64,000 nucleotides of DNA. Source: Deltaproteobacteria bacterium (GTDB taxonomy: Bacteria; Myxococcota_A; UBA9042; PHBI01). The stretch is from positions 15 through 64,014 of the forward strand of contig WYBB01000133.1 of assembly GCA_011526585.1 (NCBI GenBank), read 5' to 3'. Under the pieces are notes generated by a model. The model was not told where the DNA came from, ran no database searches, and saw only the letters and a list, made by a program, of their open reading frames with translations. Position 1 is the stretch's first letter; every line of letters begins with the position of its first letter. Positions 39,369 to 59,500 of the stretch are shown here, piece by piece. The position numbers and the translations under genes were made by a program.

Positions 39369-40097
39369 TCAATCGCGGTGACGCAGCTCGCCGGCGCCCT
39401 CGATCGCGATCCCTTCACGCACCACGACGAAGAACACCAGGTCCGGACCGCCCCCCGCGGCCGCGTAGCTGTGCGTGTCGCCCGCCTTCATCACCAGCGT
39501 CTCGCCGGGACGCACCACCGCCCCGCCCGACTCGATCATCGCGCCCTCGAGGACCAGCGTCGTCTCCTCGCCGAGGTGCGTGTGCACCGGGAACGCCGTC
39601 CCGGCGGCGAGCCGCACGAACCCGCGGACGCACCCGGCCACCGCCGGCCCGCCCTCGACCCACAGCGCGTCGAGCCCCGGCACCAGGTCGCGCTCCCACA
39701 GGCTCGCGTCGGCCGCGCGATCGAGCAGCTCCTTGGCCTTGTCGATCGTCACGTCGATCATCGCCGCCAGCTTGTCCGCGAAGCGTGCGAGCCTCCCCGG
39801 CGCGCGCGCGCTGGCCATCACCCGCTCGCGCAAGGTTGCGCTCGGCGCCAGCGGCTCGAGCCCCTCGAGCAGCGCCGCCACCAGCAGGTCGTCGTCGAGG
39901 GCGGATCGCGCGCCCGCCTCGCGAGAGGCGAAGCCGGATCGGGCGCCCGCCTCGCGAGAGGCGGAGCTGGACCGGGCGCCCGCCTCGCGAGAGGCGGAGC
40001 TGGACCGGGCGCCCGACAGCTCGCCCAGGATCGGGTCGTGCTCGTCGTCAGGCGCGCTCTGCGCTCCTCCGCTACCCTTGCCGACTGCGCCCGTCAT
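39369..40097 (-). CDS. ChrR-like cupin-domain putative anti-sigma factor lacking the zinc motif; N-terminus is a tandem 11-aa repeat
   Basis: Cupin core GTAFPVHTHLGEETTLVLEGAM...GDTHSY. The start overlaps the stop of the ECF sigma gene (ATGA at 40094-40097). Confidence 0.75.
   Translation of the reverse strand: MTGAVGKGSGGAQSAPDDEHDPILGELSGARSSSASREAGARSSSASREAGARSGFASREAGARSALDDDLLVAALLEGLEPLAPSATLRERVMASARAPGRLARFADKLAAMIDVTIDKAKELLDRAADASLWERDLVPGLDALWVEGGPAVAGCVRGFVRLAAGTAFPVHTHLGEETTLVLEGAMIESGGAVVRPGETLVMKAGDTHSYAAAGGGPDLVFFVVVREGIAIEGAGELRHRD
39910..40017. repeat. 33-bp tandem repeat, about 3.3 copies, coding for (S)SSASREAGAR units
   Basis: gcgcccgcctcgcgagaggcgRagcYggaYcgg starts at 39910, 39943 and 39976. 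Confidence 0.85.
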
Positions 40098-40962: not shown

Positions 40963-41181
40963 ATGTCGACACGGCTCTCCACAGACCTGGGAGACCCCCG
41001 TCTGATGAAGCTCCTCAAGGCCGAGGCCCTCGAGCGGGACACCAGCATCAAGGACGTGCTCACGCGCGCGCTCGAGGCCTACTTCGCCGAGCGTCTCGAG
41101 GCCAAGACGATCGCGCGCATGGCCGACTCGGCCTTCGAGGAGTGGGAGGACCCCCGCGACGCGGACTACGATCGATTGTGA
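40963..41181 (+). CDS. Ribbon-helix-helix (CopG-like) antitoxin
   Basis: 72 aa. STRLSTDLGDPRLMKLLKAEALERDTSIKDVLTRALEAYF. The stop overlaps the toxin start (GTGA). Confidence 0.7.
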   Translation: MSTRLSTDLGDPRLMKLLKAEALERDTSIKDVLTRALEAYFAERLEAKTIARMADSAFEEWEDPRDADYDRL

Positions 41182-41522
41182 CCGCCGGCGACGTCATCCT
41201 CGTTCGATTCCCCTTCTCGGACATCGAGACGACCAAGAAGCGTCCCGCGCTGGTCCTGACGGAGTCGATGCGCTCGCCTCGCAACCTCCTGGTCACGGTG
41301 GCCATGATCACGAGCCAGATCGAGGCTCTGAGGCTGGAGGGGGACGTGCTGCTCGGCAACTGGCAGGAGGCTGGCTTGCTGCATCCGAGCCTCCTTCGCA
41401 TGGCCAAGGTGGCTACCGTTGATGGCGATCTCGTCGACAGGGTCATCGGCGCGCTGACGCCGAGTGACATGCGCGCGGCAAAGCTGGCCTTCCGCCGCGT
41501 CTTCGCGTCCTGGGTGCGGTGA
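41178..41522 (+). CDS. PemK/MazF-family type II toxin
   Basis: GDVILVRFPFSDIETTKKRPALVL is the typical N-terminal strand motif. 114 aa, GTG start. Confidence 0.8.
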   Translation: MTAGDVILVRFPFSDIETTKKRPALVLTESMRSPRNLLVTVAMITSQIEALRLEGDVLLGNWQEAGLLHPSLLRMAKVATVDGDLVDRVIGALTPSDMRAAKLAFRRVFASWVR

Positions 41523-42677: not shown

Positions 42678-43838
42678 ATGGACATGCACGAGCTCGACGT
42701 CATCGTGATCGGCGGCGCGACCGGCGGCGCCGCCACCGCCCTCCTCCTCGCGCGCGCCGGGGCGCGCGTGACGCTCCTCGAGAAGGTCGCCGAGCCGCGC
42801 GCCGTCGGCGCCGGGATCGCCATCGCCGACAACGGCCTCGCGGTGCTCGAGTCCCTCGGCCTGGGCCCCGCGCTCATGCGCACGGCGTGCCCGCTGTACG
42901 GGGCCGCCGTCGTCGACGCGCGCGGGCGCACGCTCTTTTCACCGCCCGAGCCGCGGCCGCGTCTGATGATGCTCCGCCGCGCCGCGCTCCAGGGCGTGCT
43001 GCTCGACGCGCTCGCGGGCGAGCCGCGCATCCGGACCCGGTTCGGCGCCGAGGTGGTCGCGACCTCGCGCGACGGCACGGTGGTCGTGGAGAGCGCCGGC
43101 CACCGCGAGGAGCTCCACGCCGAGCTCGTGGTCGGGGCGGACGGCGTGCACTCACGCGTGCGCGCCAGCGGGGACTTCGGCGCCCGCCAGCGCCCTCCCG
43201 GCATCGCCTACCTGCGCGCGCTCGTCCCGGGCGTCGAAGCCGAAAACGTCGAGGCCTGGACCTCGGCCGGCCTCTTCGGGACCTTCGACGTCGAGGGCGG
43301 CACCTACCTCTATGCCTCGGCGAGCTCGCGCGCCACGCGCGCCGCGGTCGAGGCCCGCGATCTCGTCTCGCTCAGGCGCGTCTGGCGCGACGCCTACCCC
43401 GCCTCCGAGCGCTTCCTGTCGTCGCTGTCGAGCTTCGACGAGCTGCTCGTCAACCGCGTGCTGCGCGTCGACTGCCGCCGCTGGCACGACGGCCGCGTGG
43501 TCCTCGTCGGCGACGCCGCACACGCGATGGCGCCGAACCTCGGCCAGGGCGCCAACAGCGCGCTCGTCGACGCCGCCGTGCTGCTCGACGAGCTGCGCCG
43601 GCACCCGAGCCCGCCCGAGGCGCTGGCCGCCTATGAGGCACGTCGCCGGCCGGCGGTGCGCCGCGTCGCCACCACCGCCGCGCGCCTCGGCCGCCTCGCC
43701 GAGCTCTCCAACCCGCTCTCGCGCTTCCTGCGCGACCGCGTGCTCATGCCGCTCGCGCGCCGCTTCGCGAGCCCCGCGACCAACGACACCGTGATGCAGG
43801 AGCCGCCCGCCACGCTGCTCGCCATCGGGCGGGCCTGA
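42678..43838 (+). CDS. FAD-dependent aromatic-ring monooxygenase (UbiH/salicylate hydroxylase-like)
   Basis: DVIVIGGATGGAATALLLARAG, ADGVHSRVR and GDAAHAMAPNLGQGAN. Confidence 0.9.
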   Translation: MDMHELDVIVIGGATGGAATALLLARAGARVTLLEKVAEPRAVGAGIAIADNGLAVLESLGLGPALMRTACPLYGAAVVDARGRTLFSPPEPRPRLMMLRRAALQGVLLDALAGEPRIRTRFGAEVVATSRDGTVVVESAGHREELHAELVVGADGVHSRVRASGDFGARQRPPGIAYLRALVPGVEAENVEAWTSAGLFGTFDVEGGTYLYASASSRATRAAVEARDLVSLRRVWRDAYPASERFLSSLSSFDELLVNRVLRVDCRRWHDGRVVLVGDAAHAMAPNLGQGANSALVDAAVLLDELRRHPSPPEALAAYEARRRPAVRRVATTAARLGRLAELSNPLSRFLRDRVLMPLARRFASPATNDTVMQEPPATLLAIGRA

Positions 43839-43876
43839 TCGCCCCGGCCACCCCGACCGTCATCGGACGTGATCGC

Positions 43877-46800
43877 TCACGGCACCTGCTCGTCGTCCGC
43901 ATCCACGGCCCGGACTTCATCGGGACGAAGGACCTCGAGCAGCGTCGCGATGGCGGTCGTCTCGGCGCTCGCCGGGAAGCTCGGGCGCTCCGGGTTGTCC
44001 GATCGCAGGATCCACCCGGGACCCGTGCGCACGATGCGCTTGAGCTGCCAGCCGAAGCCGTCGACGGGATCGGGCACCTGCACGAGCGCGACCTTGCCCT
44101 CGAGCGCTCCGAGGCCGACGCCGCGCGCCCAGCGCAGGGCGACCCAGTCGCCATCGTGGATCGGACGCAGGCCTCCCTGCATCGAGTCGCCCGACGCGCG
44201 CACGAGGAAGACGTCATCCTCTCCGGCCCACGCGACCTCACGCGTCAGCTCGACCCAGGTGGCCTCGATGGAGCTCGGCTCATCGGGCCGGTCGATCGCC
44301 CCGGCCGCCGCGCGGAGCGTCGCATAGGCGCGCACCCGGCGGCTCGCGAGATCGATCACGACCGCGCCCCCGGCACCGGCGACCGCGCCGACCGGCGCGG
44401 CCCACCACATCCCGGATGAGCGGACGAAACGAACGGCACCCTTCGATCCCGTCCCCCGTTGCCCGGCCGTCGGGCCGAACCAGCGCCGCAACAAGTCGGG
44501 GAGCGCGTTCTTCCGTCGCCCCAGTCCCGCCGGCGCCGCCTCCGCGCAGCCGGTCGCGGTGAAGCGGAAGTCCCACGGCACGCTCTCGATCCGCACCGTC
44601 ACGGCGCCGACGCCCGGACCCACCCCCGGCTCGAAGCCCAGAACCGGGTCGCGGCCCGACCAGCCGAGCCGTGCCTCGAAGGCGACCTCACCCGCATCCG
44701 GCGTCGGGGCGATCCTTCGCCGATATTGCGCCAGGCGATAGTCCACCAGCTCGCGCGTGAGCTCGGCCAGCGTCGCCTCGAGGCCTACGGGCGCCGCGAA
44801 GCGCGGCACGAGGTGCTGCTCCGCGGCACGCGCCTCGAGCGCGAAGTGAGCGCCCGCAGTCCACGCCGCGATCGGGTTCTTGCGCCAGTACCGCCGCCAC
44901 ACCTCGGGGTCGGGCCGCCGCGGGTCCGGCAGCTCCTTGATGCCCTGAAGGTCGCGCATCAGCTCGGGCGATCGGGCGATCACCCGGTGACTCGCCTCGG
45001 CCAGCGCGCCGAGCTCCATGCCCGTGCCCAGCGCCTCGTGCTCGAGCAGGACCTCGATGACGATGGCCTTGAAACACTTGCTCATCGCGCTGCTCTCGAG
45101 CTCGCGCAGCCACGGCCCGCACGCCGCGACCACCGCGACCTCGTCGGGGCTCAGGTCGCCCTCGTCGCGCACGAGGTCGAACCAGCTCCGCCCGCTCGGA
45201 CGGAGCGCCTGCGGCGAGAGCCCGAGCCGGAAGAGCTCCCCGAGCCGGGGTCGCTCGTCGCGCAGCGCCCGCAGCTCGCGGTAGGTCCGCTCGAGCTCGG
45301 TCCGACCGGCGGGCAGGAGGCGGCGAAGGAGATCGACGGCCTCGAGCTCGATCTCGATCGAGCAGCCGGGCGGCAAGGCCGGCGCCTCGCCGTCGAGGAA
45401 GGCCCGGAGCGCGTCGCGATCCCGCGCACCGAGCGAGACGAGGCGGCCGATCCGATCGAGGAAGACCTTGTGGTTGCCGACGAAGTCCAAGACGGTCACG
45501 CGCTCTTTTCCGGGCGCGACGCGCAGACCCCGGCCGAGCTGCTGCAGGAACACGATGGGGGACTCGGTCGGGCGCAACATCGCCACCCGATCGACCGCCG
45601 GCACGTCGACGCCCTCGTTGAACAGGTCGACCGTCGCGAGCGCGTCGAGCTCACCGACGCGCAGGCGCGCCAACGCCAGATCCCGCTCGGCCGAGCCCGG
45701 GCCACTGTGAACCGCCTCGATCCGCACGCCGCGCGCGGCGAGCCACCGCGTCGCGAAGGTCGCGTGTCGTATCGACGCGCAGAACACCAGCGTGCGAGAG
45801 CCCGGGTGCGCTTGCCACGCCTCCCAGAGCCGCTCCATGCGCGCCTCGGTCTCGACCGCCAGCGCCAGCGCCTCGGGATCGAAGCGGCGGTTGCGCCACG
45901 GGATCGGCGCAAAGTCGGTCGTGTCGCGCAGCCCGAAATAGGCAAACGGCGCGAGCAGGCCCTCGCCGATCCCCCGGCCCAGATCGGCCCGATAGACCAG
46001 ATGGTCGTCGAAGAGCCCGAGCAGGTCGGCCTCGTCCTGGCGCTCGGGCGTGGCCGTGAGCCCCAGTACGAAGCCCGTCTCCACGCGGTCGAGCACCCGC
46101 CGATAGGTCGGCGCCGTGGCGTGGTGCACCTCGTCGACGATGACGTAGTCCCAGCGCGCCGCGGCGAGCCGCGCGAGCCAGGGGTCGCGCGAGACCTTCT
46201 GCACCGAGGCCAGCACGAGGTCCGCATCCAGGCCACCGGAGGCGCCGGCGCAGAAGTCGATCCGCGCCTCGGGCCACCTCGCCGTGAGCGCGCCACCCAG
46301 GGTGTGGGCGGCCTGGTCGAGCAGCTCGCCGCGGTGCGCGAGGAAGAGCACGCGCGGCGCCCGCTCGCGATCACCGAAGGCGGCGATCAGATCGAACGCC
46401 GCCAGCCAGGTCTTGCCGAGCCCGGTCGCGAGCACCAGGAGCGCCCGACCGCGACCCTCGGCGCGGGCTCGTGCCAGCGCGGCCAGCCCCTCCTGCTGCA
46501 CCGCGTGCGGCGTCGGCATCGCAAACGGTGGCTCGACCTCCGCCCGCGCGAGCTCATCCGCCGCGCGGGTCCCGGCCTCTTCCGGTCGTCGGCGCCTCGC
46601 GTAGGCCGCGATCCACTCGGCGTCGAGCGCGTGGGCTTCGAGCCACAGCGCCTCGAAGCCCGAGACCAGCCGGCCCCAGCCTTCGCGATCCTCGTCGCGA
46701 TCGATGCGCAGGTTCCACTCGATGCCGTGGTTCAGCGCCGACTCGGAGATGTTCGACGAGCCGACGAAGGCGACACCCCGCTCCGGCCACTCGAAACGCC

Positions 46801-47476
46801 ACGCCTTCGGGTGGAAGGCGCGGCGGCCTCGCGTCTCGAACACGCGGGCGGCCAGGTTCGGGCCGACCCAGCCGAGCAGCGTCATGAGCGCTTCGGGCGC
46901 GGTGATCTCGAGGTAGTCGCCGGTGAGCACCCGGATGGTGGCGCCGCGCTCGCGCGCGTCCAGGAGCTCGCGTTGCAGCTGCAGGAGCCCGGAGCGCTGG
47001 ATGAACGCCGCGATGATGTCGATGCGTGTGGCCGTCCCGAAGAGCGTGCCCAGGTGCGCCTTGAAAGGGTCGTCGCCGCCCCTGGCGAGCCGTGTCATCG
47101 GGTCGCGCTTGTAGTTGCCCTTCCACGGGATGACGTGGCGCACGCCGCCGCGCGGGTCGTCCATGTCGCCGCGATAGCGCGGGATGAGGTGCACGTGCAG
47201 GTGGGCGACGGTCTGACCGCCGGCCTCGCCGACGTTGATCCCGATGTTGTAGCCGTCGGGTCGATACTCGCGCTCGAGCCGCGCCTTGACGACGGCGACG
47301 AGGTCCATGAGCGCGCGCTGCTCTTCGACGCTCGCCTCGAACCACGTCGCCACGAGCCGCTTCGGGATGATCAGCGCGTGGCCCGGACTCACCGGGAAGC
47401 CGTCGAAGATCGCGAAGGCCAGCGCGTTGCTCGCGATCCACTCGGACTCGGAGCGCTCGAGGAACGGTGAGCTCAC
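43877..47476 (-). CDS. 1199-aa fusion: HIT domain, PLD-family (HKD) nuclease, SF2 DEAD/DEAH-type helicase, DUF3427-like region, S24 LexA-like peptidase
   Basis: HIT: HLHVHLIP. PLD: FHPKAWRF...GSSNIS. Helicase: ATGLGKT, IVDEVHH, LGLTATP and QQLGRGLR. S24: AAAG...ASGDSMQ...WQLKRI. Confidence 0.9.
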   Translation of the reverse strand: MSSPFLERSESEWIASNALAFAIFDGFPVSPGHALIIPKRLVATWFEASVEEQRALMDLVAVVKARLEREYRPDGYNIGINVGEAGGQTVAHLHVHLIPRYRGDMDDPRGGVRHVIPWKGNYKRDPMTRLARGGDDPFKAHLGTLFGTATRIDIIAAFIQRSGLLQLQRELLDARERGATIRVLTGDYLEITAPEALMTLLGWVGPNLAARVFETRGRRAFHPKAWRFEWPERGVAFVGSSNISESALNHGIEWNLRIDRDEDREGWGRLVSGFEALWLEAHALDAEWIAAYARRRRPEEAGTRAADELARAEVEPPFAMPTPHAVQQEGLAALARARAEGRGRALLVLATGLGKTWLAAFDLIAAFGDRERAPRVLFLAHRGELLDQAAHTLGGALTARWPEARIDFCAGASGGLDADLVLASVQKVSRDPWLARLAAARWDYVIVDEVHHATAPTYRRVLDRVETGFVLGLTATPERQDEADLLGLFDDHLVYRADLGRGIGEGLLAPFAYFGLRDTTDFAPIPWRNRRFDPEALALAVETEARMERLWEAWQAHPGSRTLVFCASIRHATFATRWLAARGVRIEAVHSGPGSAERDLALARLRVGELDALATVDLFNEGVDVPAVDRVAMLRPTESPIVFLQQLGRGLRVAPGKERVTVLDFVGNHKVFLDRIGRLVSLGARDRDALRAFLDGEAPALPPGCSIEIELEAVDLLRRLLPAGRTELERTYRELRALRDERPRLGELFRLGLSPQALRPSGRSWFDLVRDEGDLSPDEVAVVAACGPWLRELESSAMSKCFKAIVIEVLLEHEALGTGMELGALAEASHRVIARSPELMRDLQGIKELPDPRRPDPEVWRRYWRKNPIAAWTAGAHFALEARAAEQHLVPRFAAPVGLEATLAELTRELVDYRLAQYRRRIAPTPDAGEVAFEARLGWSGRDPVLGFEPGVGPGVGAVTVRIESVPWDFRFTATGCAEAAPAGLGRRKNALPDLLRRWFGPTAGQRGTGSKGAVRFVRSSGMWWAAPVGAVAGAGGAVVIDLASRRVRAYATLRAAAGAIDRPDEPSSIEATWVELTREVAWAGEDDVFLVRASGDSMQGGLRPIHDGDWVALRWARGVGLGALEGKVALVQVPDPVDGFGWQLKRIVRTGPGWILRSDNPERPSFPASAETTAIATLLEVLRPDEVRAVDADDEQVP

Positions 47477-54239: not shown

Positions 54240-56579
54240 TCAGCGTGCGGAGAGATCGAAGCGGAGCGCGTCGCCGTCGAGGCGCGCGATCACCGCGGCG
54301 TCGCGTAGCCCGGGGTCTCTGGCGATCAGCGCGGCCAGCGGCACGACCAGGCGATCCTCGAGCACGCGCCGCAGCGCGCGCGCGCCGTAGTCGGGGTGAT
54401 ACCCGTCGGCGGCGAGGCGCGTGAGCAGCTCGGGGCTCACGACGAGGTGCAGGCCGCGCCGGTCGAGACCCTCGCGCGCCGCGATCTTGTCGACCTCGAG
54501 CGCGACGATGCGCTCGATCGCCTCCCGCGCCAGCGGCGAGAACGGGATCACGTGATCGATGCGGTTCAGGAGCTCGGGCCGGAAGTGGCGCCGCGCCGCG
54601 CCGAAGTGATCGGCGCCCGCGGCCAGGCCCATGCCGCTCGCGAACCCGGTCGGCTTCGGACCGCCGGCGCCGAGGTTCGAGGTCATCACGATGAGCGTCG
54701 TGCGGAAGTCGACGGTCTCGCCGCGCTCGTCGGTGAAGCGACCCTCGTCGAGCACCGCCATGAGGTTGTCGAAGATCGCCGGGTGGGCCTTCTCGATCTC
54801 GTCGAGCAGCACCAGCGCGATCGGGCGCTGGCGCACGCGCTCGGCCAGGCTCGCGCCGCTGTCGCCCAGGCGCCCGATCGAGAAGAGGCGCGCGGCCGAC
54901 CAGGGCAGGTGGTACTCGCTCATGTCGAGGCGGATCAGCGCGTCGTCGCTGCCGAACATGCGCTGGCACATCGCCTTGGCGAGCTCGGTCTTGCCGACGC
55001 CGGTCGGCCCGACGAAGAGCAGGGTCGCGATCGGGCGCTGCGGATCGGAGAGTCCTGCCTGGAAGCGCGCGATCACCCGGGCGGCGAGCGCGGCGGCCGC
55101 GGGCTGCCCGACGACGCGCGCCTCGAGCGCGGTCTGGATCGCCTCGGCGCTCATGGCGGCGCGCTCACTGATCATGTCGACCGGCAGCCCCGAATAGCGC
55201 GCGTAGCTCGCGGTGATCGCCTCGCCGTCCAGCGCGCTCGGCGCCTCACCCATCGAGCCGGTGCGCACCCACCACTGGATGAAGCGCACCGCCGCGCCCG
55301 GCTGCGCCTGCGCCGGCTCGAAGCGCGCCTGCAGCTGCACGAGGCGTCGCAGCGCGCTCCGCTCCCAGGGGGTCGCGCGCGGGCGCTCGTGCGCGAGCTC
55401 GACCGACTCCGAGAACGAGGGGATCCACGCGGTCAGGGTCGCGTCGTCGGGTGGGTGCACCCAGGCGAGCGAGAGTGCATCCCACCAGCGCGGGTGCTTG
55501 CGCAGGAGGCGATCGGCCTCGTCCTGCGTCGCCTCGGCGATGAGGTAGAGCTCGCGGTTCTCGATCGCCGGCAGGAGCAGCTCGCCGATCGAGCCGCCCG
55601 AGGCGCCGACGGGCTCCAGCAGATCGGCGAGGCGCTCGACGTAGAGCCAGTCGCCGCCTTCGCCGAGCTCGTCGATCATCTTGAGCACGCGCTCTTCCCA
55701 CATGCCGAGATAGACCATGCCGGCGAGGATCCGATCGCGCGAGGTGTGCCAGATGTGGCGCTCGTGCTCGAGGCGGTTCCGCTTCTTCTGCGCCAGCATG
55801 CGCGCGAATTGCCGCACGCGCGCCGACTTGCCGACGCCGCGCGGCCCGACGAGCAGCGTCGACCAGGGGTGCGCCAGGCGATGCTCGAAGGGGCTCCGCC
55901 AGGTGCCGTGGGTGCCGGTGATCTTGCGCTCGCGCGCGCGTGAGACCAGCTCGTCGGCGACCTGCGTCAGGACCGGGTAGCGCTCGGCGAGCGGGACCTC
56001 GCGCTCGTCGTCCTCGTCGTCGAGATCGGCCAGGCGTGAGGTCCACTCACGCACGTGCTCGCGGCCCTCGCGGCGGAACTCGAAGACGAGCTTCTCGTGC
56101 TCGCCGAGGAGCGCGGCGCCGATGGCCGTCTCGAGCGCGGCGCCGGCGAGCTCGAGCGACTCGAGCACCATCCACCAGCCGAAGCGCGGCAGGCCGACGC
56201 GCCAGGCGCCGCCCTCGAGGCGGCAGGCCGCGTACGCGATCGTCAGCGGGAAGGAGCGCGCGCCGATCACCGGGCGTTTGTGCACGAAGGTCTGCGGGTG
56301 CACCTCGATGGTGACGGCGTGCATCGCGAAGCTCTCGCTCCAGAGGTAGCGCTCGAGCGACTCGTCGCCGCGAGCGGCGCGCTCGACGAGCTGCAGATCG
56401 ATCGCGTCCAGCACCTGGTCGAGGTCGCCGCCGTAGGCCGCCGGCGGTGGCTTGTCGAAGAAGAGCTCCCAGCGCCGCATGAGGATCGCGGTGAAGGCGC
56501 CGTGCTCGTGCTGGATCACGTAGACGCGGCAGCTCTTCTTCTTGCGCGCCGCGCCGGGCTCGTGGGGCTCGCCGTTCAT
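54240..56579 (-). CDS. ClpA/B-like AAA+ ATPase paralog 3 of 3 (unique N-domain, degenerate D1, canonical D2, no C-terminal extension)
   Basis: The ATG at 56579 sits 7 nt after GAGGAGG and overlaps the upstream stop (ATGA). D1: GPRGVGKS. D2: GPTGVGKTELA, LLDEIEKAH, TSNLG and YGARALRR. Confidence 0.85.
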   Translation of the reverse strand: MNGEPHEPGAARKKKSCRVYVIQHEHGAFTAILMRRWELFFDKPPPAAYGGDLDQVLDAIDLQLVERAARGDESLERYLWSESFAMHAVTIEVHPQTFVHKRPVIGARSFPLTIAYAACRLEGGAWRVGLPRFGWWMVLESLELAGAALETAIGAALLGEHEKLVFEFRREGREHVREWTSRLADLDDEDDEREVPLAERYPVLTQVADELVSRARERKITGTHGTWRSPFEHRLAHPWSTLLVGPRGVGKSARVRQFARMLAQKKRNRLEHERHIWHTSRDRILAGMVYLGMWEERVLKMIDELGEGGDWLYVERLADLLEPVGASGGSIGELLLPAIENRELYLIAEATQDEADRLLRKHPRWWDALSLAWVHPPDDATLTAWIPSFSESVELAHERPRATPWERSALRRLVQLQARFEPAQAQPGAAVRFIQWWVRTGSMGEAPSALDGEAITASYARYSGLPVDMISERAAMSAEAIQTALEARVVGQPAAAALAARVIARFQAGLSDPQRPIATLLFVGPTGVGKTELAKAMCQRMFGSDDALIRLDMSEYHLPWSAARLFSIGRLGDSGASLAERVRQRPIALVLLDEIEKAHPAIFDNLMAVLDEGRFTDERGETVDFRTTLIVMTSNLGAGGPKPTGFASGMGLAAGADHFGAARRHFRPELLNRIDHVIPFSPLAREAIERIVALEVDKIAAREGLDRRGLHLVVSPELLTRLAADGYHPDYGARALRRVLEDRLVVPLAALIARDPGLRDAAVIARLDGDALRFDLSAR

Positions 56580-59500
56580 GCCCCGGCCTCCTCTGCCCTG
56601 GCGATCGGCGTGGCCGAGCGCGACAGGCTCAGGCACCACGCGACGAGGCCCGGCAGATCGGCGATGTGCCCGGTCTCGTGATGGCCAAGGCGGTGATCGA
56701 GCACGGCGTAGGGGCGCGCTTCGTTCCTGCCGCCGCCCGACTCGTGGCGCAGCGTGCGCACCTGCTCGCGCGCGGTGGCGACCTGCTGGACGAGCTCGCC
56801 GAGCGGGACGGCGTCGGCCTCGGGGGGCAGGAGCTCGAAGGTGACGACCTCGAGCCCGTCGCCGAGGGTGTCGAGCACGTGCGCGCCGACCTCGATCGCC
56901 AGCGCCGCGCGCACGCCGAGCCCGCTCAGGCGCAGCACGACGCGCTCGGCGTCGTCGAGCGGGGCGGCGGGATCGCGGACGAGCTGGCCGCCGGCGGTGA
57001 GCTTCGCGAGCTCCTCGAGCTCGAAGGGTGGCTTGCGCAAGGCGTCTGCGAGCGCGGGCAGGAGCCGTCGGAGCGCGCTCTTCGTGGGGCGCGAGAGGCG
57101 GACGGTGGCGCGGTGCAGCGGCGCGTCGACGCGCGGCGCGATCGCCAGGAGGAAGCTCGCCTGGCTGAGCGCGGCGACGATCTCGCGTTGGGAGCTCTGG
57201 TGGAGGTTGCGCATGCGGCGCATCGTCTTGAGGTTGTGCGCGATGGCGCCTTGGAGGCGCTCGCGCCAGTAGAAGCGATCGGCCTCGTCGGGATCGGTGG
57301 GCGCGACGACGAGGCGCTCGTCGGGCGCGTCGTGGTCGGGGCGGGTGACGAGCGCGGCGAGCGCGTCGCAGGTGCGGTCGAGCACGCGGTCGGCGTCGGC
57401 GCGCGTGCCGGCGAGCAGGTGCGAGTACGGCAGGGTGTGGGAGGGGCGCGCCGGCGTGAGCGTGTCGACGCTGATGACGATCCCGCGCTCGTCTCCGTCT
57501 CCGTGGGTGTCGACGTGCACGCGCTTGAACCCGTCGGCCGGGACGCGCGAGAGCTCGACGGCGATCGGATCGGTCACCTGCGACTCGATCCAGCGCTTGA
57601 CGGTGCGCGCGCCGTACTCGGGATCGAAGCCGCGGGCGACGACGTGATCGACCGCGGCGTCGCTGAAGGTGAGCGAGGCGAAGCGATCGCGCAGGCCGTG
57701 GCGGTCGGCGAGGCGTGTGAGCAGTCGTGTGGTGATCGCGTGCGCGGCCTCGCTCGAGAGCGGGCCGAACGGGATCACGGCGTCGAGGCGGTTGAAGAGC
57801 TCGGGCGGCAGGGCGGCGGCGACGGCGCGTGTGGTCTCGGCGCCGCGCGTGCTCGCGTCGGGCGCGGCGGCGAAGCCGAGCGACGGGCGCGGGTGGGCGC
57901 CGAGGTTCGAGGTGATCAGGATCACCGCGCGACGGAAGTCGGCGGTGCGCCCGGCGGCGTCGGTGAGGCGGCCTTCGTCGAGGAGCTGGAGCAGGAGGTA
58001 GAGGACCGAGGGGTGGGCCTTGTCGAGCTCGTCGAGCAGCACGACCTGAAACGGCGTGTCGAGGAGCGGGCTGGTGAGGAGGCCGTCGGGATCGTCACTG
58101 GTGCCGATGAGTCGGCCCACCGCGTCGGCGGTGGTGAGCTGGTTCATGTCGACGCGCAGGAGGCGTGCGCCGTCACCGTAGAGGTGGGTGGCCAGGCCCT
58201 TGGCGAGCTCGGTCTTGCCGGTGCCGGTCGGACCGGTGAAGAGGAAGACGCCCCAGGGGCGGCTCGGATCGGTGAGACCCGTGCGCACGCGCTGCGCGAG
58301 ATCGATCATCGCCGCGCTCGCCTCGGGCTGGCCGACGACGTGCGCGCCGAGCGCGCGGATCTCGTGCGGCACGTAGCCCGCGTTGCTGGCGCGGTGATCG
58401 ATCAGCTCGGGCGGCACGCCGGCGCGCGTGGTGATGGCGTCGGCGAGCTCGTCGCTCGTGACGTAGTCGTCGAGCTTGGCGGCCTCGTCGACGAGCGCCA
58501 GCGAGCGCCCGGGCTCGGCGCGGCCGGGGTAGAGCACGCGCGCCCAGGTGCGCACGCCCGCGAGCGCGTCGGGATCGAAGACGATCCCGCCGTCCTCGCG
58601 CTTGCGCGCGGCGGCGAGCACCATGCGCACGACCTCGTCGTCGTCGGGCTCGGGCACGAGCAGGCGCTGGAACTGCGCGGCGAAGGCGGGCGCGTCCTCC
58701 TCGAGGCGCTGCCAGGCTTCGGCGGTCGCCTCGCCGAGGATGCGCACTTCGCGGCGCTCGAGCGGTCCGCGCATGACCTCGGCGAGGTTGCGCTGGCTGT
58801 CGCGCGAGCGCCCGAGCAGGGACCACGCCGGCAGATCGGGCACGACCAGGAAGCCGCGGCGGCGGGTGAGCTCGTCGATGAGGCGGGCGATGCGCGCCTC
58901 CCAGTCGCCGTGGTGCTTCATGCCGGCGAGCACGCGGCGCCCGCTGAGCTGCCAGACGCGGCGCACGCGATCGAGGCTCTTGTGCAGAGCGTAGCCATCG
59001 TCGCCGAGGCGCGCGGTGACCCAGCGGTGGATCAGCGTGGTCTTGCCGACGCCGGGCGGCCCGATGAGCACGAGCGAGCCGCGCTCCGACAGCGTCGCGA
59101 GCAGCGTGTCGAGGCCGGGGCGGGGCAGGCCGAGCGCGAGCGCGGACTCGGTGGCGCGCTCGCTGAGATCGGTCGCGATCGCGTCGAGCTCGGAGCGGTC
59201 CTGGGTGTCGTCGGGCTGGCCGGCGCCGGGTGGTCTGGTCTCGGGGCGGAGGTCGGCCCACCAGGAGCCGCGCTTGCGGTTGCCGACGCGCTCGAGGAGC
59301 GAGGGCACCTCGACGTCGAAGACCAGGGTGCGCAGGCGATCCTTGCGCGCCTCGAGCTCGGCGAGGTCGTCGGGATCGGTGACGTCGCGCAGGAGATGCT
59401 CGAGGAAGACGCGGTACTGGGTGGCCCGCGGGCGCTCGGGGTCGACGACGAAGAAGTCGCGCTGGGCGTCGGGGTGATAGGCGATGAACAGTGGTTCACC

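Follow-up and report, generated by a model that had tools for sequence, protein, structure and literature searches.

Self-cleavage by peptidase S24 domains is the textbook switch behind the SOS response and prophage induction, and to our knowledge every S24 switch characterised so far regulates either a DNA-binding repressor or UmuD. SauUSI, the ATP- and modification-dependent type IV restriction enzyme of Staphylococcus aureus, combines in a single chain a dimerising PLD nuclease with an SF2 ATPase, a helical coupler and, for target recognition, an SRA/DUF3427 domain whose binding turns on the ATPase (PMC7913695; PMC6765204). Here we consider a gene in which these two kinds of machine appear to be joined. 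It lies in a 64,000-nucleotide stretch of DNA from a Deltaproteobacteria bacterium (contig WYBB01000133.1, positions 15 to 64,014; hereafter the window) and encodes 1199 residues, with a HIT domain, a nuclease of the PLD type and a helicase of the SF2 type followed by an S24 module. Our preferred explanation, to which we give a probability of about 0.6, is that a competent S24-type autoprotease was captured as a unit from the lineage of XRE-type helix-turn-helix (HTH)/S24 repressors and built into a SauUSI-like nuclease/translocase that also carries a HIT domain. Sequence and structural models together suggest that this is very probably a built-in proteolytic switch, undescribed for this kind of enzyme. 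We found no published description of S24 joined to a PLD-helicase enzyme, and S24 and DUF3427 were mentioned together just in unrelated passages.

The module resembles those of LexA, UmuD and lambda CI in its fold, in a Ser-Lys dyad set in GxSM and (V/L)K(R/K) motifs, and in an Ala-Gly pair that closes a strand some 35-40 residues upstream. Unlike them, it stands behind roughly 1050 residues of HIT, PLD nuclease and helicase with no N-terminal HTH, and what it is predicted to regulate is an enzyme instead of a repressor or polymerase subunit.

Candidate cut site and dyad of the S24 module

Two features at the 3′ end of the gene, both within the final 155 codons of the 1199-codon open reading frame (ORF), carry the argument.

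44300-44338, minus strand: cleavage-site region, a beta-strand at aa 1047-1058 (RVRAYATLRAAA) with the candidate scissile bond Ala1058-Gly1059 at 44300-44305 (AlphaFold2 strand, conservation, MAFFT)
43964-44254, minus strand: peptidase S24 catalytic core, aa 1075-1171, with Ser1098 at 44183-44185 and Lys1146 at 44039-44041 (PF00717, hhalign, Foldseek)

An earlier note on this DNA, made from its letters alone, had named this bond and this Ser-Lys dyad and had held that the S24 module looks capable of autoproteolysis and is not a degenerate fold. Translation and codon arithmetic reproduced each of the residues at its codon, along with all the peptides that had been quoted: R1055-A-A-A1058 is followed by G1059-A-I-D-R-P, with Ala1058 at 44303-44305 and Gly1059 at 44300-44302; Ser1098 falls inside VFLVRASGDSMQGG, which includes GDSM, and Lys1146 inside GFGWQLKRIV. 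The protein is rich in Ala and Gly, with 7 AG/AA dipeptides among residues 1001-1100, and an Ala-Gly pair taken alone in this one sequence is not significant and makes for weak evidence. The S24 match of the window protein is itself marginal (PF00717, 24.3 bits against a cut-off of 23.3), and a phmmer search of the window sequence against the PDB reached Mycobacterium tuberculosis LexA at E 0.058.

The case is carried by the family. Homologous loci were collected by a pattern scan of one genome per species, which returned 168, and the locus analyses were made on the best 80 of the 168. PF00717 was matched by all 32 full-length homologues scanned, with a best E of 4e-12, and the family profile matches LexA C-domains in the PDB. 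An hhalign comparison of the family profile with E. coli LexA gave E 9.5e-6 and set Ser1098 on Ser119 and Lys1146 on Lys156; MAFFT likewise pairs the dyad residues with those of LexA and, moreover, places RAAA|G onto LexA RVAA|G. Among the aligned homologues from the genome loci, Ala1058 is kept in 81 of 81 and Gly1059 in 79 of 81, positions +1 to +6 after the Gly being variable; Ser1098, Met1099, Lys1146 and Arg1147 are each found in 78 of the 78 homologues that extend that far. A further 120 database homologues have (L)(R/Q/K)AAAG in nearly every case, and GxSM and KR are kept in the same way. The deviants comprise a Gly-to-Glu change in a 783-residue fragment, a Gly-to-Ser change in an ORF cut by a contig end, and one frameshifted copy. 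From Ala to Ser there are 40 residues in the window protein, 35-38 in the family and 35 in LexA; from Ser to Lys the figures are 48, 47-48 and 37, the longer spacing than in LexA reflecting a loop insertion. Thus cut site and dyad are nearly invariant across some 200 homologues of roughly 40-55% identity, and the joint invariance of Ser, Lys, P1 Ala and P1′ Gly amid variable neighbours reads as a signature of catalysis, not of packing. The earlier judgement that the module looks fit for autoproteolysis is borne out to that extent, and a degenerate S24 fold is rejected on the same conservation.

Structure prediction points the same way. An AlphaFold2 model of aa 1020-1199, computed with 35 homologues, has a mean predicted local distance difference test score (pLDDT) of 84 and a predicted template modelling score (pTM) of 0.78, and contains a beta-strand at 1047-1058 (28-39 of the modelled segment) that ends exactly at P1 Ala1058. 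A second model, of a homologue's C-terminal 897 residues, has a pLDDT of 87.5 and a pTM of 0.76, with a strand that likewise ends at AAA|G. When the first model was compared with the PDB by Foldseek, 36 of the first 37 matches were lambda CI, LexA or UmuD′ at probability 1.0, with target-normalised template modelling (TM) scores of 0.65-0.77; the order runs from 8gmu (lambda CI on a RecA filament) through 2hnf (hyper-cleavable CI with its cleavage-site region) to LexA 1jhe, with UmuD′ lower. A module of the signal peptidase (S26) type was rejected on this comparison, no signal peptidase being among the first 36 true matches, all of which are LexA, CI or UmuD′.

The PDB chains offer a finer comparison (1JHC, whose listing as a cleavable form is at odds with PMC10020695, plays no part in it), in that 1jhe_A is a cleavable form of LexA and 1jhf a non-cleavable one (PMC10020695), while 8gms_A is the inner LexA on RecA, with the A84 carbonyl carbon 3.0 Å from the S119 O-gamma, and 8gms_B the outer one, whose cleavage-site region is disordered (PMC9926225). 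Our model aligns over 139-149 columns with the chains in which this region is docked (1jhe_A, 8gms_A, 8gmu_A, 2hnf), at a loose root-mean-square deviation (rmsd) of 4-6 Å, and over just 98 columns with 1jhf and 8gms_B. Within the limits of a prediction, the model sets the AAAG strand where cleavable S24 proteins have theirs. The earlier note had made its proposal depend on the AAAG segment being able to reach the active site; the long alignments with docked chains and the strand ending at Ala1058 favour this, but the loose fit leaves the point only partly settled. Taken together, competence for self-cleavage at a canonical cut site is well supported by conservation and modelling.

The SauUSI-like enzyme and its shortened copy

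The remainder of the gene is laid out as follows.

43877-47476, minus strand: whole gene, 1199 aa, HIT / PLD nuclease / SF2 helicase / coupler-like region / S24, with a GTG start and the stop codon at 43877-43879
47171-47449, minus strand: HIT domain, aa 10-102, with HxHxH residues H92/H94/H96 at 47189-47203 (PF01230, E 6e-22)
46691-47026, minus strand: PLD/HKD nuclease domain, aa 151-262, with H222-P-K224 at 46805-46813 (PF13091, PLDc_2)
45518-46510, minus strand: SF2 helicase-like ATPase, with ResIII at aa 323-479 (PF04851, E 4e-27) and Helicase_C at aa 548-653 (PF00271, E 1e-14)
44342-45439, minus strand: pre-S24 region, aa 680-1045, coupler-like, helical and then beta-rich (hhalign; secondary structure from a homologue model)
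43880-43963, minus strand: C-terminal tail, aa 1172-1199, a short remnant of the linker to the post-S24 domains of relatives (alignment; the protein ends here)

The frame is intact over 1199 codons, the G+C content at third codon positions (GC3) is 0.91 and of coding type, and the N-terminus MSSPFLE agrees with the consensus start in the homologue alignment. HIT, helicase and S24 domains are each present in 32 of 32 family members scanned; the PLD domain PF13091, which in the window copy scores 24.4 bits, slightly below its 27-bit cut-off, is nonetheless matched by 31 of the 32. Moreover, H92/H94/H96, H222/K224, G239-S-S-N242, the Walker A residues G352-T356 and D448-E-x-H-H452 are invariant across 32 homologues. 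Of the PADLOC models, mREase_IV, which represents methyl-directed restriction enzymes of type IV, matched best (aa 142-729, E 5e-84). A single HKD PLD nuclease, an SF2 helicase-like ATPase and a coupler-type region thus share one chain, as they do in SauUSI, and by its domain content the enzyme core is SauUSI-like, of the type IV restriction kind. Unlike SauUSI, the window protein adds an N-terminal HIT domain, has S24 at the junction where the coupler-like region would meet the core of the reader, and has no reader (the target recognition domain). A Pfam scan gave no HTH DNA-binding domain in the N-terminal 1045 residues, and for want of one the protein is, on this evidence, not a LexA or CI repressor, although some Joint Genome Institute (JGI) records label fragments "LexA". 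The HIT domain (47171-47449, minus strand), whose HxHxH is invariant family-wide, is absent from SauUSI and from a HIT-less sister group, and PADLOC also matched it weakly to the HIT of Thoeris ThsC type.

The pre-S24 region has no Pfam match, and profile sequence searches gave no meaningful PDB match either for it or for the post-S24 regions of relatives. By hhalign, however, it matches what lies ahead of the DUF3427 core in a family of DUF3427 proteins, with a probability of 100% and E 4.9e-83, up to template column 399. In the window protein this upstream region is all that there is of such a domain: a C-terminal target recognition domain of the DUF3427/SRA type is not present and PF11907 has no match, the chain ending 28 residues after the S24 core, within the linker that leads in relatives to the next domain. 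Thirty-eight bp beyond, a convergent FAD-monooxygenase gene ends at 43838. An assembly artefact at the 3′ end was rejected, since contigs of three independent bioreactor/wastewater metagenome assemblies do not differ from one another over 43500-44600. In a strain variant there are 11 substitutions over 1 kb and no indel, and the codons for the Ala, Gly, Ser and Lys are untouched. Three other loci (L024, L079 and L082), whose nearest relatives belong to full-length classes, have independently lost the same post-S24 part, and they, like the window copy, retain AAAG (VAAG in L079), GxSM and KR. By these comparisons the window copy is a family variant that has been truncated at its C-terminus but keeps an intact S24.

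Relatives, neighbours and the putative origin of the module

The best 80 loci are mostly from Myxococcota (Sorangium, Myxococcus, Archangium, Pyxidicoccus, Nannocystis, Enhygromyxa, Minicystis), the remainder including some from Acidobacteriota, Planctomycetota and other metagenome-assembled genomes, and their ORFs are usually 1400-1600 residues long. A profile search added at least 120 full-length members, annotated as "DEAD/DEAH box helicase family protein" or by JGI domain lists. The architecture is thus found in at least 80 species-level genomes, mainly Myxococcota, in addition to the HIT-less sister group. Decayed or N-truncated copies also occur: L001 (8435-11335) is broken into a ResIII piece, a 112-aa piece and a 444-aa S24 piece, L002 (4113-5591) is a stand-alone C-terminal part of 492 aa with GNSM, and L081 is frameshifted.

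In 58 of the 61 complete homologues the chain runs on past S24 by about 100, 230 or 385 residues (100-390 overall). S24 is thus internal in most relatives, and a cut there would also uncouple the post-S24 domains from the motor. The first 100 or so post-S24 residues match the DUF3427 core weakly (E 0.0025, probability 12%) but collinearly, from template column 404. The last 150 or so residues of the longest class (aa ~1430-1587 of P0026) resemble the N-terminal domain of EcoKMcrA (NEco), a reader of 5-methylcytosine, by Foldseek (E 2.8e-5, TM 0.77); that domain is also the sole PDB match by phmmer for the terminal region, at E 0.076. This class comprises L048 (the same protein as P0026), L032, L039, L047, L051, L059, L061, L063, L067 and L078. 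The NEco-like domain hints at sensing of DNA modification, in relatives only, as it is absent from the window protein.

The notion that S24 was inserted inside a Pfam DUF3427 domain was rejected, the spliced pre- plus post-S24 sequence having no PF11907 match and the post-S24 profile only the weak match to the core. It was revived in modified form because of the strong pre-S24 match and because, in more distant relatives, a true PF11907 comes directly after S24. These came from a search of 1.84 billion representatives with a profile of cut site plus S24, which gave 611 proteins at E<=0.001, so few that the S24 modules concerned form a small, distinct clade. Among them are HIT-less PLD-helicase-S24 proteins that pass directly into a true PF11907 (P0350, P0356, P0381) and HIT-less proteins that terminate with S24 (P0306, P0379, P0393). 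The former three have a Cys-Gly site (IACGHF, as in UmuD) and Arg at the position of the general-base Lys (LRK/LRR), and in this subgroup S24 may be inactive or may work differently. Judging by the alignments as a whole, the S24 module is inserted into a SauUSI-like enzyme at the point where the coupler-like region meets the reader.

As to where the module came from, this S24 subtype has its closest kin outside the helicases among HTH_3/HTH_31-S24 proteins (P0319, P0320, P0322), which share with the family FP.L.(A/V)AAG, GxSM and (V/I)KR. Unlike the window protein they comprise only some 350-360 residues with an N-terminal HTH and look like classical cleavable regulators. Since the cut-site motif is the same, S24 plus cut site would be a module from the lineage of cleavable XRE-type regulators. 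P0319 and P0320 (350-363 aa) also carry, after S24, a P(D/E)(Q/E)LAP...FGL segment that resembles the start of the family's post-S24 domain, and from this likeness the captured module may have included that domain as well.

No conserved partner genes emerged from the 80 loci, where the largest shared neighbour family is present at 11 loci in mixed orientation; without conserved neighbours, the gene would be a one-gene system. In the window it is flanked on one side by a DASS transporter, a radical SAM protein and a peroxiredoxin, and on the other by the FAD monooxygenase, an AraC regulator, a MazF pair and an ECF sigma/anti-sigma pair. The PemK/MazF-type toxin (41181-41519, plus strand; PF02452, E 3e-14) lies 2.4 kb from the gene and is preceded by a short ORF resembling its antitoxin (region ~40966-41519, plus strand). 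The anti-sigma ORF (39369-40097, minus strand) is ChrR-like and has three tandem 11-residue units, SSSASREAGAR, at ~39900-40010, in the linker of this cupin-type factor, which adjoins the ECF sigma gene. Farther away, two adjacent large ClpB/ClpV-like AAA+ proteins (AAA_2 plus ClpB_D2-small) occupy 56579-63246 on the minus strand, and aa 355-434 of the first (56579-60181, 1201 aa) also match an nSTAND3/AAA_16 P-loop region weakly.

Among the loci, L085 (5178-8257) presents a different arrangement, in which a 418-aa DUF3427 gene starts with a one-base overlap on a 607-aa ResIII/Helicase_C gene. From its gene content it is a split SauUSI-like enzyme with the specificity part separate.

Predicted cleavage, with its possible trigger and consequence

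If the module works as its relatives do, the strand ending at Ala1058 would lie over the S24 active site, Lys1146 would deprotonate Ser1098, and Ser1098 would attack the carbonyl of Ala1058, severing the chain between Ala1058 and Gly1059, either within one chain or across a dimer. We infer that the cut would be conditional, in line with all characterised S24 switches, and that it would alter the activity state of the nuclease-motor. In most relatives the cut would free S24 together with the post-S24 domains, some of them like readers of DNA modification, from the motor; in the window copy, only a 141-residue S24 piece would come off. That piece may restrain the enzyme as a lock or a dimer clamp, and its removal would then license the nuclease-helicase. 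The reason for looking to the S24 piece itself as the restraint is that reader-less copies arose repeatedly yet keep a perfect cut site and dyad. We propose activation only tentatively and rate inactivation by the cut somewhat lower, though the data accord equally well with a proteolytic brake. As the gene stands alone, it would be a one-protein system of defence or genome conflict.

The earlier note had proposed that RecA filaments trigger the cut and that the cut releases or unmasks the nuclease-helicase, and both proposals are plausible. RecA on single-stranded DNA (ssDNA) is the usual stimulus for proteins of this class, and the most likely one here would be such a filament that stabilises the cleavage-site region, a proposal we rate as possible, at somewhat less than even odds. 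Where LexA has its pocket for RecA F203 (F111, L113, V153), the family has conserved hydrophobic residues (F1090, V1092 and W1143), and the Arg at P4, R1055, corresponds to LexA R81, a RecA contact.

Several observations weigh against this account of a competent, RecA-triggered module. The acidic patch of LexA (D150-E152) is only partly kept and is broken by a 5-residue insertion. The 1058-residue N-terminal body may clash with the groove of the RecA filament, and even full-length LexA binds the filament poorly, for steric reasons (PMC9926225). With an rmsd of 4-6 Å in the longer Foldseek alignments, the cleavage-site region fits only loosely, and AlphaFold may be echoing a learnt, LexA-like docked state; the hhalign match to LexA begins at residue 110 and so leaves the cut site uncovered. 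In the HIT-less PLD-helicase-S24-DUF3427 group, where the Lys aligns to Arg, S24 modules evidently can persist without the dyad. Within the window there is no defence-island context, and no enrichment of LexA boxes was found upstream of the family genes, where the distribution of mismatches to a Myxococcus xanthus LexA-box consensus is the same as inside genes.

The rival explanations differ in what the cut does, what sets it off, and whether it occurs at all. Unlikely on our estimate, but deserving serious weight, is a brake, in which RecA filaments arising from DNA damage or from self-restriction would trigger the cut, uncouple recognition or dimerisation and turn the enzyme off as a built-in form of restriction alleviation. 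Cleavage of LexA and CI inactivates by parting their domains, which provides a precedent, and most relatives have extra C-terminal domains (weakly DUF3427-core-like, and in one class McrA NEco-like) beyond the cut site. A functional analogy is available in type I restriction alleviation, where proteolysis of the restriction subunit (EcoKI HsdR, by ClpXP) controls a restriction motor-nuclease and avoids autoimmunity following DNA damage or repair, though there the protease is separate, acts in trans and is unrelated in sequence (PMC11109961). However, reader-less copies, that of the window included, keep cut site and dyad, which is hard to explain if detaching a reader is the sole purpose, and a reader-less nuclease-helicase active by default would endanger the cell. 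Moreover, related enzymes function while having the specificity domain on a protein of its own (PMC6765204; locus L085), so cutting the covalent link need not inactivate. No more probable than the brake is self-cleavage that is independent of RecA, set off by the enzyme's own engagement of DNA or by some other partner or stress signal, or occurring constitutively as maturation. The bulky N-terminal body, which may hinder entry into the RecA groove, the partial conservation of the RecA-contacting acidic patch and the lack of an upstream SOS-box signal all suit it, as do pTM values of 0.76-0.78, which suggest an S24 packed on neighbouring domains able to control it. Such processing is reported for the LexA-like IrvR of Streptococcus mutans (PMC7101444), but according to the same source characterised S24 switches with a cleavage-site region are RecA-stimulated with few exceptions, and the positions by which LexA contacts RecA, the pocket hydrophobics and the P4 Arg, are conserved here.

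The other two rivals would deny the switch, in the family or in this copy. S24 might cleave nothing and serve as a dimerisation or scaffold domain, the AAAG strand being conserved for packing only. The S24 domains of LexA, CI and UmuD double as dimerisation modules, single-HKD PLD nucleases require a dimer, and the distant HIT-less subgroup retains S24 though its Lys aligns to Arg. We regard this as improbable, given that Ser, Lys, P1 Ala and P1′ Gly are jointly invariant in about 200 sequences with variable neighbours, and that, of the two Gly substitutions, one sits in a fragment and the other in an ORF that a contig end interrupts. Least probable of all is that the window copy is a decaying remnant, truncated and functionally dead. 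It is without the 100-390 post-S24 residues found in 58 of the 61 complete homologues, its pre-S24 parts stray from a strong family consensus (ATGCAEAAPAG against KEFCNVARPAG, for example), and degraded copies are known elsewhere (the L001 fragments, L081). Yet the frame of 1199 codons is intact with a GC3 of 0.91, and none of the four enzymatic modules has lost a catalytic motif; three independent metagenome assemblies carry the identical sequence, whose strain variant has 11 substitutions and no indel over 1 kb. In addition, three other lineages and HIT-less relatives share the architecture that terminates with S24.

On the preferred explanation, that of a captured and competent autoprotease in a SauUSI-like enzyme, we are dealing with a familiar switch put to a new use, on a type of enzyme already known. 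Should the RecA trigger also hold, it would be the first LexA-type switch directly controlling an effector enzyme in place of a repressor or a polymerase accessory factor, a one-polypeptide immune or conflict nuclease-helicase set on or off by RecA-ssDNA, although we hold this full combination to be doubtful. The model predicts the sizes of the fragments, the new N-terminus GAIDRP and the behaviour of three point mutants. For engineering, the S24 module would be a compact, portable and damage-responsive protease tag. If it works as predicted, it would explain how a dangerous single-chain nuclease-helicase stays silent, or is shut down, without a partner gene. If true, there would be a direct post-translational route from RecA filaments, the SOS sensor, to restriction activity, and the state of the enzyme would be set by phage replication, incoming ssDNA or self-inflicted breaks.

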